From a virus, in the UHGV virus genome UHGV-1356089: 39,456 bases of DNA. One strand, written 5' to 3'. A program made the position numbers and the translations under genes. Within the stretch, counting starts at the first letter, position 1. Each line of letters begins with the position of its first letter. Shown piece by piece: positions 2,116 to 39,456 of the stretch. Under the pieces are notes generated by a model. It did not search any database. It had not been told where the DNA came from and saw nothing but the letters and a program-made list of their open reading frames with translations.

Positions 2116-2137
2116 CCCGCCATCAGGTGGGTTTTTT
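2116..2137 (+). terminator. Rho-independent terminator-like hairpin (CCCGCC-ATCA-GGTGGG then T6); the reverse complement is also followed by a T-rich run
   Basis: 6-bp stem with one G-U pair, 4-nt loop, TTTTTT; overlaps the mnt stop codon. Confidence 0.5.
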
Positions 2138-2374
2138 GTACAAATCCTTCAGCGTATCAAACACCATCTTCTTAACAAGTTCAGACTGCTCATCAGCGAT
2201 GCGTTCCGCATCGTCTCGATAGCCTGAAATTTTGGATGGCTTTGATACAGCATCAGTCACTATCTGAACTAATTCAGAATTAAGAGAGCGGCCATTGGAT
2301 TTGGCTCGCTGTTTTAGTTTTTCCTTTAATTCGTAAGGTAGCCGCAGATTAAATTGCGGGTCATCTCTTCCCAT
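2123..2374 (-). CDS. mnt: Mnt repressor (ribbon-helix-helix, Arc/Mnt family)
   Basis: 83 aa; MGRDDPQFNLRLPYELKEKLK...ADEQSELVKKMVFDTLKDLYKKPT closely matches P22 Mnt as I remember it. Confidence 0.8.
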   Translation of the reverse strand: MGRDDPQFNLRLPYELKEKLKQRAKSNGRSLNSELVQIVTDAVSKPSKISGYRDDAERIADEQSELVKKMVFDTLKDLYKKPT

Positions 2375-2437
2375 TCTTGATGCCTCGCTTTTGTGAGTGG
2401 ATCGGCATCTTATTATCTGCTGGTTGCATCCTCAATA

Positions 2438-2452
2438 AGACCACAGTGGTCT
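2438..2452. promoter_or_regulatory. Candidate Mnt operator: perfect 15-bp palindrome AGACCAC-A-GTGGTCT
   Basis: Perfect inverted repeat in the 146-bp gap between mnt (minus) and the tailspike gene (plus); resembles the GTCCAC/GTGGAC-type symmetry of the P22 mnt operator. Confidence 0.5.
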
Positions 2453-2520
2453 CTTTGTTTGATTAATAATGCATCACCGTAGCCATGCTGCGGCGATTCC
2501 TTGTATCTGGAGCAAATTAA

Positions 2521-4995
2521 ATGACAGACATTACAGCCAATGTTGTAGTGAGTATGCCTTCGCAACTCTTCACTATGGCGCGTTCTTTTAAAGCCGTAGC
2601 CAATGGCAAAATTTATATCGGTAAAATTGACACTGACCCGGTAAATCCTGAAAACCAGATTCAGGTTTATGTAGAGAACGAAGACGGTTCTCACGTTCCT
2701 GTTTCGCAACCAATCATCATTAACGCTGCTGGTTATCCGGTATATAACGGACAGATTGCCAAATTCGTAACTGAGCAAGGCCATTCTATGGCTGTTTATG
2801 ATGCGTATGGTGCACAGCAGTTCAAATTCCCAAATGTGCTGAAGTATGACCCCGATCAGCTACGGCAGCAATTAGAAGATCCAGATGGCGCTAAAAAATA
2901 TCCTGAGTTGCAGATAGCACGATGGAGAGATTGTGGAGATGTTAGAGGTTGGGGAGCAAAAATAGATGGGGTAACAGATGATTCAGATGCTTTTATTAAA
3001 GCTTTAAACTCTGGAAGGTCGGTTATAACAATTCCTGAAGGAATATGCATCATCAAGAAGAATATTAACATTCCTGAAGGGTGTTCACTGGTTGGATCTG
3101 GCATTGATTATTGGGATACATATAGACCAGCGCCTGAAAGATTATTAAAAAGTTGGAGTAAAGGAACCCATCTTGTATTTACTGGTGATGGAGAAAAAAA
3201 CAAATATTTTTTTAACATCTCTAATGAAAGACCGGTTAAAATTGTTGAAGGGATATCTTGTAAGTTCACTGAGTTTACGAATGAAGATTCTGTAGGTGTT
3301 ACTCCTGCTACACCAAAAGCCATGAGCGTAGCTGTTAGTATCAACAGGGCATCACAGTTACGCAATCTGAGAATAATGGTAAGTAAAAATGGTATTGAAG
3401 GATACAATAACCCTGATTCTTATTCATTGGGTGATAACTGGGATATAGGGTTGCATGTATACGATAGCTGTGATTCAGTTATTGATAACGTACAGATTGT
3501 CGGCTATTGGAGGGTAAAAGGACTACTACTGACAGAAAATGACGGGAGCCTTTCAATGAAGGGAAATCCTGAAAAAACGCACTTTAATAACGTTTATGTA
3601 CAGTCAGGAATCGCGATAAGGAATAGCCCTCAGATTGATCTTGTAAGTAATACTGAAAGCTCAGTGACATTTAAACATAAAAAGTCGATGAGAATAACTT
3701 CAGTTAAACAGTTTAAAATTGCTGGCAGTGAATCAGTATATACGTATTCAGATGCATCATTTGATGGAACTAATATCACACTATCTGGTATTTCTCCTGA
3801 AATACAAGGTTCAATAAGTGTAATCAGGTTTCCGTCAATTGGTAATAATTTTAGTGGGACTGTTTTTGAGAATACAGTAGCCACTACTCTTGATCATACA
3901 TCAGGTAAGCCATCAGAATACTTTGGCCTTCCTGCATCCTTTGCATTAGAGATTGATGGTTTCCCTGTTCGTAATTTAAGGCTTGATAAATTCAAAGCTC
4001 AAACTACCTTTGATAAAGGAAATTGCATTTTTGGTGATTGCCGTGATGTTAAAATCACATCATCTGAGTTTGAAAATGGAATTATGATTGCGTATAACCT
4101 GACCGAGACTCATGGTTATACAGGAAATCTTAGATTTTTTGCTTCTGATCTTCAGAGCAGCGTTAACACAAGCGAGTTTAAACCAAGAGACGCATTTGTA
4201 GACAATAGACAAATAAAAACGGAGTTTACTGATGGTTCTTTCATTATAAAGAACTGGAGGCCTACAGATACAAAAATACAATGGTCGTCTGGAGTGGATG
4301 CTATTGTTCTTAGAGAGTCACCTGACGAACAATCAAACGGAAATATTTACGGGTATCACATTGATGGTAAAAGATGGATTAATGTTAGTGGATATAACAA
4401 AGATATAAATATTTCATCAAGAAACTTAAGCGTAAAAAACCATAGTGATGACTCCGCAGTTATTAATATATTCGGCGACTCTGGAAATATTGCCATTAAA
4501 GGTAATTTTTCACCAATTGTTGATAACAGCAAATCTCTTGGTGCACCATCATTTAGATGGGCTCAGATTTATTCTGCATCTGGGACTATAAGCACATCAG
4601 ATGAAACACTTAAAACAATATATGACATTACTCAGGCAGAGCGTGATGCTGCGCTGGAAATAAAGGGAATTATATGCAAGTTCAGGTTTAATGAGTCGAT
4701 TAATTTTAAAGGATTGGAGTTATCAAGGTATCATTTTGGAGTTGGCGCTCAAACCGTAGGGGATATTCTTAGAAAGCATGGTTTAAACCCTGAGCAATAT
4801 GCTTTTTGGTGTTACGATGAATGGCCAGACGTATGGGATGAAGAGGTGATAACTGAAGAGAGCACAGATCCTGATACAGGTGAGAAAATTTATTCTCAAT
4901 ATAAAACAGGAAATATGATTCTTGTAAAAAAAGCAGGTGGACGCTACGGAATTCGTTATGACGAATTGGCTATGTTTATATTAATGGCAATGTAG
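2521..4995 (+). CDS. Tailspike: P22-type N-terminal head-binding domain, central probable glycan depolymerase, C-terminal self-cleaving chaperone domain
   Basis: N-terminal ~110 aa match the P22 gp9 head-binding domain; the C-terminus has an [10 protein letters not shown]... segment like the self-cleaving chaperone domains of endosialidases and K5 lyase. Confidence 0.85.
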
Positions 4996-5013
4996 TTGCA
5001 ATAAATGCAGTAT

Positions 5014-5043
5014 ATCCCGCATGAAAACTGCGGGATTGTTTTT
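5014..5043 (+). terminator. Rho-independent terminator after the tailspike gene
   Basis: ATCCCGCA-TGAAAAC-TGCGGGAT stem-loop followed by TGTTTTT. Confidence 0.75.
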
Positions 5044-5340: not shown

Positions 5341-5580
5341 CTGTTACAGGTCACTAATGCCATCTAAGTGTTTGATTCATAGTGACTGGATATGTTGTGA
5401 TTTGTAGCATTATGCAGTCTATTTTTTAGACTAAAGATATTATAACACATTGATATTAATGGTTTTTAATGTTTCATGTTCAGCTTTTTTATACTAAGTT
5501 GGCATTATAAAAAAGCATTGCTTATCAATTTGTTGCAACGAACAGGTCACTATCAGTCAAAATAAAATCATTATTTGATT
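5341..5580. other. attP: Lambda-type attP (core GCTTTTTTATACTAA at 5483..5497, with P and P' arms)
   Basis: Core identical to the lambda att core; arm-type sites CAGGTCACTAAT (5347-5358), CATAGTGACTGG (5378-5389) and CAGGTCACTATCAGTCAAAAT (5543-5563); core ~75 bp from the int 3' end as in lambda. Confidence 0.85.
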
Positions 5581-6641
5581 TCAATTTTGTCCCACTCCCT
5601 GCCTCTGTCATCACGATACTGTGATGCCATGGTGTCCGACTTATGCCCGAGAAGATGTTGAGCAAACTTATCGCTTATCTGCTTCTCATAGAGTCTTGCA
5701 GACAAACTGCGCAACTCGTGAAAGGTAGGCGGATCCCCTTCGAAGGAAAGACCTGATGCTTTTCGTGCGCGCATAAAATACCTTGATACTGTGCCGGATG
5801 AAAGCGGTTCACGACGAGTAGATGCAATTATGGTTTCTCCGCCAAGAATCTCTTTGCATTTATCAAGTGTTTCCTTCATTGATATCCCGAGAGCATCAAC
5901 ATGCAATGTTGTAGGGATGGCAATTTTTACGCCCGTTTTGCTTTGCTCGACATAAAGATATCCATCTACGATATCAGACCACTTCATTTCGCATAAATCA
6001 CCAACTCGCTGCCCGGTAACAACAGCCAGTTCCATTGCAAGTCTTAGCCAACATGGTGATGATTCTGCTGCTTGATAAATTTTCAGGTATTCGTCAGCCG
6101 TAAGCCTTGATCTCCTTACCTCTGATTTTGCTGCGCGAGTGGCAGCGACCGGGTTTGTTGTTATATGGCCTTCAGCTATTGCCTCTCGGAATGCATCGCT
6201 CAGTGTTGATCTGATTAACTTGGCTGATGCCGCCTTGCCCTCGTCTATGTATCCATTGAGCATTGCCGCAATTTCTTTTGTGGTGATGTCTTCAAGTGGA
6301 GCATCAGGCAGACCCCTCCTTATTGCTTTAATTTTGCTCATGTAATTTATGAGTGTCTTCTGCTTGATTCCTCTGCTGGCGAGTATTTTTTCGTAGCGAT
6401 CAAGCCATGAATGTAACGTAACAGAATTATCACTGTTGATTCTTGCTGTCAGAGGCTTGTGTTTGTGTCCTGAGAATAACTCAATGTTTGCCTGTATTGC
6501 TTCAGTAATTGCTATCCTCCTGTCTCTGCCTAATCCGAACTCTTTACCCGTCCTTGGGTCCCTGTAGCAGTAATATCCATTGTTTCTTATATAAAGGTTA
6601 GGGGGTAAATCCCGGCGCTCATGACTTCGCCTTCTTCCCAT
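5571..6641 (-). CDS. int: Tyrosine integrase, lambda Int
   Basis: 356 aa, MGRRRSHERRDLPPNLYIRNNGYYCYRDPRTGKEFGLG... matches lambda Int along its length. Confidence 0.95.
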   Translation of the reverse strand: MGRRRSHERRDLPPNLYIRNNGYYCYRDPRTGKEFGLGRDRRIAITEAIQANIELFSGHKHKPLTARINSDNSVTLHSWLDRYEKILASRGIKQKTLINYMSKIKAIRRGLPDAPLEDITTKEIAAMLNGYIDEGKAASAKLIRSTLSDAFREAIAEGHITTNPVAATRAAKSEVRRSRLTADEYLKIYQAAESSPCWLRLAMELAVVTGQRVGDLCEMKWSDIVDGYLYVEQSKTGVKIAIPTTLHVDALGISMKETLDKCKEILGGETIIASTRREPLSSGTVSRYFMRARKASGLSFEGDPPTFHELRSLSARLYEKQISDKFAQHLLGHKSDTMASQYRDDRGREWDKIEIK

Positions 6642-37012: not shown

Positions 37013-38314
37013 ATGGCTACTTGGCAACAAGGAATCAACTCAGGCGGCTTTCTTGCTGGTATCGGTGGGCAAAACTCAAATGCGCCAAAGGCAAGTGATG
37101 TAAGTGAGGCGTTGGCCTATATTCGCCAGAACAACGAAATGGAGCGCTCAGGTCGCAATAACATCGGCCTTCAGGCGTTGCAGGGTCTTGGTAGTGTCGC
37201 TCAAGCATATCAAGCCGCAAAGCAACAGGAAGCGGATGCTGCATTCCAAAAAGAATATGCGGCAGCCATCCAGTCCGGCGATCGACAGCAGGTTCGAAAT
37301 CTGATGACCAAATATCCTGGTCAATTAGAGAAGATTCAGTCTGGTATGAAGTGGGCAGACGAAGACCAGCGCAATTCCATCGGTACCTTAGCGGCTGGCG
37401 CACGCCTTGCGTCATCGTCTCCAGAAGCAATGCAATCATGGCTGCAAAACAACGCCAAGGAACTGACTCGCGTCGGTGTTGACCCTAATAACGTTGCTCA
37501 GATGTATCAGCAGAATCCTTCAGGATTTGGTGAGTTTGTTGATCACCTTGGAATGGCTGCTCTTGGTCCGATTGATTACTTCAATGTTCAGGACAAGATG
37601 GCTGGTCGTGAGATTGACCGAGGCAGGCTGGCAGAGACAATCCGCAGCAATCAGGCAGGAGAAGCACTAACAGCTCGAGGTCAGGACATCCAGATACGTG
37701 GACAGAACATCAGCGCACAGAATGCTGCTCTTTCCCGAGAAATACAAAGAGCAGAATTACAAGAAAAGGCTCTGGACAGACAGATAGCCAGAGAAAGCAA
37801 TCAGTTAAAGCTTGAAGAGCTAAAACAGAAACAGGCAGATGTTCGGCAAAAGGCTGACATAGCCCGCGCTGACAGGCAGGCCGCCGCTCAGGGTGCAGTT
37901 GATACGTTCAGCACCGCGCTTGATTCTCTCAACGAGATAGAGCAAAGCCCCGGCCTTTCAAAAGCAGTAGGAATTCGCTCAGCGTTTCCGACAGTTCCTG
38001 GCTCTGATGCGGCTAACTTTGAAGCAAGGCTCGACACCTTTAAAGCTCAAACATTCCTTCCTATGGTGCAGTCCCTGAAGGGTATGGGCGCTCTTTCAGA
38101 TGCAGAGGGTAAAAAATTATCCGATGCGGTTGGTGCCCTAAGCCCCAAAATGAGTGAAAAGGCTTTTCGTGACTCTATCGGAAAGATTAGAAATCAGCTT
38201 GAAAGCAAGTTGAGCACTGTTAAAAAACAGTTTGATTATCAGGAGCCGGTGCAGAATATGCCAGGGCAACAATCTACTACTGGCAGTAACTTTTCTTCGC
38301 TATGGGGTGATTAA
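37013..38314 (+). CDS. Ejection protein, P22 gp20-like
   Basis: 433-aa ORF in the gp20 position; coiled-coil-rich. Confidence 0.55.
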   Translation: MATWQQGINSGGFLAGIGGQNSNAPKASDVSEALAYIRQNNEMERSGRNNIGLQALQGLGSVAQAYQAAKQQEADAAFQKEYAAAIQSGDRQQVRNLMTKYPGQLEKIQSGMKWADEDQRNSIGTLAAGARLASSSPEAMQSWLQNNAKELTRVGVDPNNVAQMYQQNPSGFGEFVDHLGMAALGPIDYFNVQDKMAGREIDRGRLAETIRSNQAGEALTARGQDIQIRGQNISAQNAALSREIQRAELQEKALDRQIARESNQLKLEELKQKQADVRQKADIARADRQAAAQGAVDTFSTALDSLNEIEQSPGLSKAVGIRSAFPTVPGSDAANFEARLDTFKAQTFLPMVQSLKGMGALSDAEGKKLSDAVGALSPKMSEKAFRDSIGKIRNQLESKLSTVKKQFDYQEPVQNMPGQQSTTGSNFSSLWGD

Positions 38315-39456
38315 TGGCTAAAGCATGGAAAGATGTTATCGCCTCTCCACAGTATCAGGCGTTAGCACCAGAACAAAAAGCGCAGGCTCAGGAGCAATAC
38401 TTCAATGAAGTCGTTGCCCCGCAAGCCGGAGAAAATGCAGAGCAGGCTAAGCAAGCTTTCTATGCTGCCTATCCATTGCCATCTGTGCAGCCAGTGGAGA
38501 CACAACAACCAGTATCACAGCAACAACCACAGCAAAGTGGATTTATGTCGGATCTTGGTGAAGCCGTGAAAGAAACTGGTCGCGGACTGGTGCAGGCTGG
38601 CGTGAACGTGGCAAACATACCTGCATCAGTTGCCGATGCTGTAACAAGCGCGGCGGCATGGGCTGGCGGTAAACTCGGCATTGGCGATGGTACATATCAA
38701 CCAGCGCCACGAGTAACAACGCAGGGGTTAGAGCAGGACTTTGGCCTTCAGCAAGGCGCGCTCACTCCACAAACGACAGAGGGAAGGGTATTTGCTGAAG
38801 CATTGCCTTACCTCACTCCTGCTGGCGTTGAGAGAGCGGCAGCACAGGCACCAACACTTGCTGGTCGAATTGCTCAGGGGGCAACTCGCCTTCTAGCAGA
38901 AAACGCAGTTGGATCACTTGCTGCAAATAGTGCGAAAGATGATGCGGAAGCACTCGCCACCGATTTAGGCGTTGGCGTTCTGGCTGGCGGTGCTATTAAC
39001 GCTGCCGGACGTGGATTAGGTGCTGCTTATCGTGGCGTTCGTGGTGCTATTGCGCCAGAAGCGCAGCAGGCTATCAGATTTGCAGAGCGTGAAGGAGTTC
39101 CTCTGCACACCACAGACCTGTTACAGCCTACTTCCCGCGTCGGAAAAATGGCGCAAACGACAGCAGAAAATATCCCCCTGGCTGGCACAAGCGGAATGAG
39201 AGCAACGCAACAGGAAGCGAGAAGCCAGTTGGTTCAGAGATTTGCTGATAAATTCGGTGAGTATGATCCAGCGGTTGTTATTGACAGCCTTAAAGCGAAA
39301 ACATCAGGAATTCGTCGTGCCGCCGGTAATCGACTGGAGCAGGTTCAGAATGCTATGGCGGGAATAAACATTCAGCCTGCAAGAGCAATTCAGCAGATTG
39401 ATACAGAAATATCTAACCTGCAGAAGCTTGGTAAGGTTGCTGATAACGAGACTATT
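38314..39456 (+). CDS. Ejection protein gp16-like, 5' part (no stop before the window end; continues in frame at 1..855 if circular)
   Basis: ATG at 38314 overlaps the previous stop (TAATG); frame open to the last base; 39456 is divisible by 3 and the left-edge ORF is in frame 1. Confidence 0.55.
   Translation, partial: MAKAWKDVIASPQYQALAPEQKAQAQEQYFNEVVAPQAGENAEQAKQAFYAAYPLPSVQPVETQQPVSQQQPQQSGFMSDLGEAVKETGRGLVQAGVNVANIPASVADAVTSAAAWAGGKLGIGDGTYQPAPRVTTQGLEQDFGLQQGALTPQTTEGRVFAEALPYLTPAGVERAAAQAPTLAGRIAQGATRLLAENAVGSLAANSAKDDAEALATDLGVGVLAGGAINAAGRGLGAAYRGVRGAIAPEAQQAIRFAEREGVPLHTTDLLQPTSRVGKMAQTTAENIPLAGTSGMRATQQEARSQLVQRFADKFGEYDPAVVIDSLKAKTSGIRRAAGNRLEQVQNAMAGINIQPARAIQQIDTEISNLQKLGKVADNETI

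Follow-up and report, generated by a model that had tools for sequence, protein, structure and literature searches.

The virus genome UHGV-1356089, analysed here as a single stretch of 39,456 nucleotides (the window), carries a tailspike gene whose two ends resemble well-characterized phage modules and whose large central part belongs to no recognizable enzyme family. The question raised by this locus is which host glycan the spike recognizes. The explanation that best accounts for the evidence, with a probability of about 0.7, is that the gene encodes a P22-like phage tailspike equipped with a self-cleaving chaperone and a beta-helix that degrades a group 2 capsule, most probably K14.

The features of the gene and its surroundings are, in window coordinates:

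2521..4995, plus strand: tailspike gene, an intact ORF with an ATG start, 824 aa, 91.6 kDa precursor
2521..2859, plus strand: head-binding (particle-attachment) domain, aa 1-113, PF09008
2860..3096, plus strand: neck/linker and N-terminal beta-helix cap (aa 114-192); the similarity shared with CUS-3 stops within this segment
3097..4470, plus strand: body (aa 193-650), a right-handed parallel beta-helix predicted to bind the receptor and to act as the depolymerase
4471..4596, plus strand: stalk before the cleavage site, aa 651-692, containing D668 and R679
4594..4614, plus strand: autocleavage motif T692-S693-D-E-T-L-K698, with predicted scissile bond T692/S693 and Ser693/Lys698 dyad
4597..4992, plus strand: intramolecular chaperone (Peptidase S74), aa 693-824, 15.3 kDa, whose release is predicted to follow trimer folding
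5014..5036, plus strand: terminator-like GC hairpin and T-run, 19 nt past the tailspike stop codon, from a consensus scan only
5571-6641, minus strand: lambda-type integrase gene, adjoining the attP core

A three-module tailspike in a P22-like temperate phage

The window is a complete, circularly permuted genome of a P22-like temperate E. coli podophage. Its ends (1-855 with 38314-39456) join into an intact 665-aa ORF, which is 99.95% identical to a gene in the ejection-protein region of the prophage of E. coli 04-00955. The lambda attP core GCTTTTTTATACTAA is found at 5483-5497, between the tailspike and integrase genes; identity to the chromosome of the 04-00955 lysogen ends exactly at 5497, and the prophage in this strain adjoins ybhB-bioA, which is the lambda attB site. 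In the RefSeq annotation of this identical prophage the head-binding domain is encoded within a P22-like virion gene set, the tailspike gene being located downstream of the gp4, gp10, tail-needle and ejection protein genes and of an Arc-family gene. The phage combines a P22-like virion module with lambda integration machinery.

Just upstream of the tailspike gene, a bidirectional terminator-like hairpin (2104-2133) occurs at the 3' end of the Arc-family repressor gene (2123-2374, minus strand). This region looks like a reduced immI-type region; in CUS-3 the corresponding place is occupied by mnt and ant genes and by annotated 'boundary sequences'. Also, an antisense ORF of 123 aa (2413-2784, minus strand) overlaps the start of the tailspike gene. 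It is absent from the RefSeq annotation of the lysogen and is probably spurious.

The 824-aa product has the same sequence (100% identity) as the 'phage tailspike protein' listed by RefSeq for E. coli 04-00955 and ECE170, and its residues 121-824 match PHROG 1171 'tail spike' (E 3.5e-202). The three-module design put forward by the sequence-only reading, consisting of a P22-type head-binding domain, a body that resists assignment and a C-terminal chaperone, was recovered by Pfam, phmmer, profile, AlphaFold2 and Foldseek analyses, cleavage itself being predicted, and the body is modelled as a beta-helix. The matches of the individual modules are not due to chance. AlphaFold2, supplied with the family alignment, gave a model with a mean pLDDT of 81.9.

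The first of these modules (aa 1-113) is of the P22/Sf6 type and attaches the spike to the tail hub. Pfam Head_binding (PF09008) scores 217.1 bits over these residues against a cut-off of 24 (E 5.6e-65), the solved N-terminus of Sf6 gp14 (7sg7) aligns with aa 1-118 and differs from them at only some ten positions (E 1e-64), and the match to P22 gp9 has an E-value of ~1e-49, the Sf6 and P22 domains both aligning end to end. These scores agree with the earlier assignment of the first ~110 residues to the P22 gp9 particle-binding domain. In the adjoining neck, PF12708 is detected on aa 141-196 (28.5 bits, cut-off 27) and the tail spike 9vvr matches aa 114-194 by phmmer.

Chaperone, autocleavage motif and module exchange

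The third module (aa 693-824) is an intramolecular chaperone of the endosialidase/T5 pb1/phi29 gp12 family, with the catalytic residues present. The motif SDETLK begins at aa 693 (nt 4597), giving a C-terminal domain of 132 aa. As a single sequence the protein marginally misses the Pfam cut-off for Peptidase_S74 (PF13884; 21.4 against 22 bits), and a precomputed PF13884 match exists in most of its homologues. Single-sequence phmmer searches recovered Kp7 gp51 of a Klebsiella phage (7y5s, 1.4e-15), T5 pb1 (4uw8, 4.5e-12) and the endoNF chaperone (3gw6, 5e-10), and also the Acinetobacter tailspike 6eu4 and phi29 gp12 (3gud). With a profile of 54 family members the values were 8e-38 for 3gw6, 3e-35 for the C-terminal domain of phi29 gp12 (3gud) and 2e-29 for 4uw8. 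The chaperone part of the AlphaFold2 model (pLDDT 80-94) was matched to 3gw6 by Foldseek with a probability of 1.0. The resemblance to endosialidase chaperones, originally noted for the C-terminal ~150 residues, is solid by phmmer, profile and Foldseek and holds on alignment (phmmer to 7y5s, 4uw8 and 3gw6; ungapped against T5 pb1), the length of the domain being corrected to 132 aa.

Preceding the motif, only the last 42 positions of PF12219 End_tail_spike, corresponding to the stalk end, match the protein (aa 651-692), with a score below threshold, and the C-terminus of the phi92 endosialidase (4hiz) matches the stalk in both phmmer and family profile searches. The pLDDT is low at aa 673-690, as would be anticipated where the chains of a trimer intertwine and a single chain is modelled. 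T5 pb1, solved as the S1264A variant (4uw8), aligns ungapped from the stalk through the motif, where TADARLK of pb1 and endoNF are aligned, so that D668, R679, T692, S693 and K698 are the counterparts of pb1 D1239, R1250, T1263, S1264 and K1269. In pb1 the Thr1263-Ser1264 bond is cut, with Ser1264 activated by Lys1269, and Arg1250 of the neighbouring chain is placed between Asp1239 and Thr1263, where it senses correct trimer folding; in both pb1 and K1F the serine departs with the chaperone (PMC4690869).

Because the Thr-Ser bond is the one cleaved in the aligned pb1 and K1F proteins, cleavage is predicted between Thr692 and Ser693. The sequence-only reading had picked the right catalytic motif, and the bond is now placed one residue upstream of the Ser-Asp site that it had proposed. 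Within the family alignment, T692, S693 and K698 are each conserved in 49/54 members and D694 in 48/54; the upstream catalytic residues are less well kept (D668 in 36 and R679 in 35 of the 54 homologues). In the proposed mechanism, three chains would fold around the C-terminal chaperone trimer, and correct formation of the stalk would then allow Ser693, with Lys698 as its activator, to cut the Thr692-Ser693 bond, aided by Arg679 of the neighbouring chain together with Asp668 and Thr692. The cut would free the 15.3-kDa chaperone and leave a mature spike of 76.4 kDa.

The chaperones of T5 pb1 (4uw8) and K1F endoNF (3gw6) are homologous to the present one, the Asp, Arg, Thr-Ser and Lys constellation being matched position by position. 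They are, however, attached to other mature proteins, in T5 to a bullet-shaped protein that binds O-antigen and in K1F to a sialidase, and cleavage is predicted in the present case. The pre-neck appendage gp12 of phi29 (3gq7 and 3gud, ~14% identity) differs in belonging to a Gram-positive phage, in its teichoic-acid substrate and in its N-terminal attachment.

The tailspike of CUS-3 (SiaK1), a P22-like temperate K1 coliphage, has the same three-part design and a group 2 capsule target. Over aa 1-163, its head-binding N-terminus shares 88% identity with the present one (DNA 89.5% over nt 1-437), and its chaperone shares 34% over aa 661-816, with VTSDGTLKT at the position of STSDETLKT. The central parts are different: CUS-3 harbors the GH58 sialidase domains PF12217, PF12218 and PF12195, none of which was detected by Pfam in the present tailspike, whereas the latter has an unrelated beta-helix with a PF12708 cap. 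Also, the target of CUS-3 is the K1 capsule, in contrast to the K14-like capsule predicted here. CUS-3, HK620, Sf6 and P22 already serve as the review example of tailspike module exchange (PMC5380687). The modular design is known from the CUS-3 K1 endosialidase tailspike and the basic architecture is textbook knowledge; the mosaic is real but conventional, and the new part is the predicted capsule receptor, not the architecture.

The ECONIH2 gene WM48_RS30365 ('tail fiber domain-containing', PHROG 1171) shares the body and stalk (nt 579-2083, aa 193-694) with 97.8% DNA identity, but it encodes an unrelated N-terminal adaptor and a different chaperone after the TSD motif. It lies beside the lysis cassette of another prophage type and is annotated as a pseudogene. 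The DNA breakpoint between the two genes coincides exactly with the TSD autocleavage motif (window 4594-4602; L002 5228-7702), indicating that the mature spike (body plus stalk) and the chaperone are exchanged as separate cassettes. Relatives of the body-plus-chaperone unit are found behind PF09008, PF18668, PF03906 and PF12571 N-termini.

The beta-helix body and the capsule of its hosts

Residues ~140-650 are modelled as a right-handed parallel beta-helix, mostly with pLDDT >90 and with the short strands typical of this fold, preceded by a PF12708-type N-terminal cap. When the profile of the 54 family members was compared with solved structures, only the first rungs (aa 140-200, the PF12708-like cap) gave a match. 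No NCBIfam model matching the body was found, no enzyme family could be given to it by sequence (Pfam, NCBIfam, family profile against solved structures), and comparison with characterized glycanase families yielded nothing beyond the generic fold at ~13% identity. The statement that the central domain is not assignable was therefore correct for sequence as well as fold comparison (Pfam, NCBIfam, profile and structure comparison), and the structure prediction recommended along with it returned a confident beta-helix of generic kind. Twelve acidic positions of the body show little or no variation among the 54 homologues, five of them being conserved without exception (D308, E351, E477, D509 and E518) and seven in 49-53 of the 54 (D196, D256, D305, E339, D341, D498 and D561). 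The GC content of the body and chaperone (window 3001-5000) is 36%, versus ~50% elsewhere in the genome, which fits a recent import of the tailspike cassette from a lower-GC source. The 'colanic acid degradation' label of PHROG 8280 was discarded, as the match, over aa 1-367, owes most of its signal to the common N-terminus.

In order to assign a receptor, the distribution of the modules was compared with the surface polysaccharide loci of the hosts. Twenty complete E. coli genomes contain the full tailspike gene (97.8-100% identity), 29 of 5,426 contain the body cassette, and the head-binding part alone is present in 1,153. The 29 genomes hold 33 body-cassette places, with two copies each in ECE170, Combat2C1, OZ040490 and E57; in such cells two prophages may share one receptor specificity.

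The group 2 kps locus of strain NCCP12480 contains in its region 2 a galE-like gene, a 761-aa gene and an acetyltransferase gene. This region 2 type is present in 108 of the 5,426 genomes (2%), all of which were listed in full for the overlap count, and exists in three sequence variants (51, 26 and 31 records). It is shared by 28 of the 29 carriers of the body cassette (Fisher p = 1.5e-48, the genomes not being phylogenetically independent; p ~1e-17 if only ten independent acquisitions are counted). All 20 P22-type lysogens have it, as do eight of the nine genomes in which the body is joined to another adaptor, the sole exception being GF43; apart from this strain, hosts of ECONIH2-type body-cassette proteins have the same kps type as the P22-type lysogens. 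Given that the head-binding module alone occurs in 1,153 genomes, the association belongs to the body. Colanic acid was rejected as receptor, since it is made by nearly all E. coli and cannot account for a 2% subset of hosts.

Region 2 looks inactivated in several genomes. A frameshift interrupts the galE-like gene of the lysogen NCCP12480 (L012 24672-25659), strain C9 has an IS1 insertion, and the polymerase gene is annotated as split in M160133, FCI17 and SCAID WND1. Such inactivation could reflect escape from capsule-targeting phages.

The co-occurrence is correlative, and many of the carriers are clonal (E50/E67/E57/E20; CREC/CRKP strains), which leaves room for an indirect link in which the spike recognizes something else, or binds without cutting, and travels with hosts of this type. 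Both the presence of the body in GF43, which lacks this K locus, and the failure of fold and profile comparison to assign catalytic residues are in line with such a link. It is nevertheless quite improbable, as the association persists with each of the three variants of the K locus, across no fewer than three O-types and four integration sites, and with two adaptors or phage types that are unrelated to each other, and as the twelve acidic body positions are invariant or nearly so. Moreover, in 04-00955 the prophage lies at 0.82 Mb and the kps locus at 3.53 Mb; being megabases apart, their physical linkage is excluded. A capsule receptor directly recognized by the body remains the preferred reading.

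Most characterized tailspikes with a P22-type head-binding domain target the O-antigen, and the beta-helix fold is common to the tailspikes of P22, Sf6 and HK620, so that an O-antigen-specific endoglycosidase using the host O-antigen as receptor had to be considered. Strain 04-00955, the only lysogen for which a literature serotype was recovered, is O2:H6 (PMC3958309) and has the O2/O50 wzx and wzy genes. VG38-53E1 is also O2, while NCCP12480, O15_8X and M160133 are O15. Overall, the wzx/wzy genes of the lysogens define O2, O83 and O15 clusters, and the tailspikes found with them are 98-100% identical. The repeat units of O2, O83 and O15 are chemically unrelated, and with clusters this diverse a single O-antigen cannot be the receptor. 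Also, the prophages occupy the lambda attB site, a site beside sbcB, the argW region and a site next to yfgI, each O-type being found with more than one of these integration sites, and one capsule type accounts for all 20 lysogens. The O-antigen as receptor is hence very unlikely. The E50 chromosome is rearranged relative to the expected rfb synteny.

From the co-occurrence, the tailspike is most likely a capsule depolymerase rather than an O-antigen enzyme. The initial description, a capsule- or O-antigen-degrading enzyme of unknown specificity, can be narrowed to its first half, all 20 lysogens sharing one group 2 kps type, and the O-antigen half is contradicted by the O2, O83 and O15 clusters.

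Capsule type, chemistry and significance

Region 2 of 04-00955 encodes three proteins: a GalE/Gne-family epimerase, a 760-aa polymerase-like protein and a hexapeptide acetyltransferase. The 760-aa protein has a GT2 domain (Glyco_tranf_2_2) at its N-terminus, where a weak galactosyltransferase signal is also seen, and in addition a Capsule_synth domain, which is of the Kdo-transferase type found in KpsS/KpsC. The repeat predicted from this combination of epimerase, GT2/Kdo-transferase and acetyltransferase is a disaccharide of Gal(NAc) and Kdo that carries O-acetylation. For the K14 antigen, Jann et al. (1983) reportedly described an O-acetylated polymer of GalNAc and Kdo. K14 is one of the beta-Kdop capsules (PMC12887879); by frequency it belongs to the top four or five E. 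coli K types, and it occurs in many STs and is notable in CC131, together with K5, K100, K2 and the atypically arranged KL112 (PMC13171606, PMC13171598). The kps locus of the carriers has the typical arrangement and is present in the ST131 strains JJ1886 and JJ1887. None of the usual reference strains for K1, K2, K5, K15, K52 and K100 is among the 108 carriers of this region 2 type. Gene content and elimination, rather than a match to a typed reference, make K14 the probable capsule type. The text of Alqasim 2014 does not give the K type of JJ1886, and the supplements of two 2026 K-typing papers contain none of the relevant strains or assemblies.

According to the proposed mechanism, the beta-helix would bind and degrade the group 2 (kps) capsule and not the O-antigen. 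Glycan cleavage, the least supported step, would most likely be hydrolytic and proceed via conserved carboxylates of the groove, for which D308, E351, E339 and D341 are candidates. As the fold alone cannot separate hydrolases, lyases and deacetylases, the same capsule receptor could also be served by a lyase or deacetylase instead of a glycoside hydrolase. This variant is unlikely: Pfam finds no SGNH or esterase domain in the tailspike, a Kdo ketoside does not offer the 4-O-linked uronate geometry of beta-eliminating lyases, and the phage enzymes described for other Kdo-containing K antigens are glycanases. A hydrolytic depolymerase is accordingly the chemistry favored here.

No report of a K14-specific coliphage enzyme was found in the searchable literature. 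The chances are about even that with this tailspike a depolymerase for the E. coli K14 capsule (or for this kps type) is identified for the first time, its carriers being temperate P22-like phages in which the spike and the chaperone are swapped separately, with the crossover at the autocleavage motif. If true, it would be a second case, similar to CUS-3, of lysogenic capsule-specific podophages in ExPEC lineages; K14 ranked second for invasive potential in a recent study (PMC13171598). A prophage-borne depolymerase defined at the sequence level would be useful as a reagent for typing, as an anti-virulence candidate enzyme and as a genome marker from which phage host range could be predicted. 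The receptor assignment, to a capsule that is probably K14, is the specific and testable value added by this analysis. More generally, counts of co-occurrence with capsule loci can assign the receptor of a prophage tailspike where sequence and fold comparison fail.
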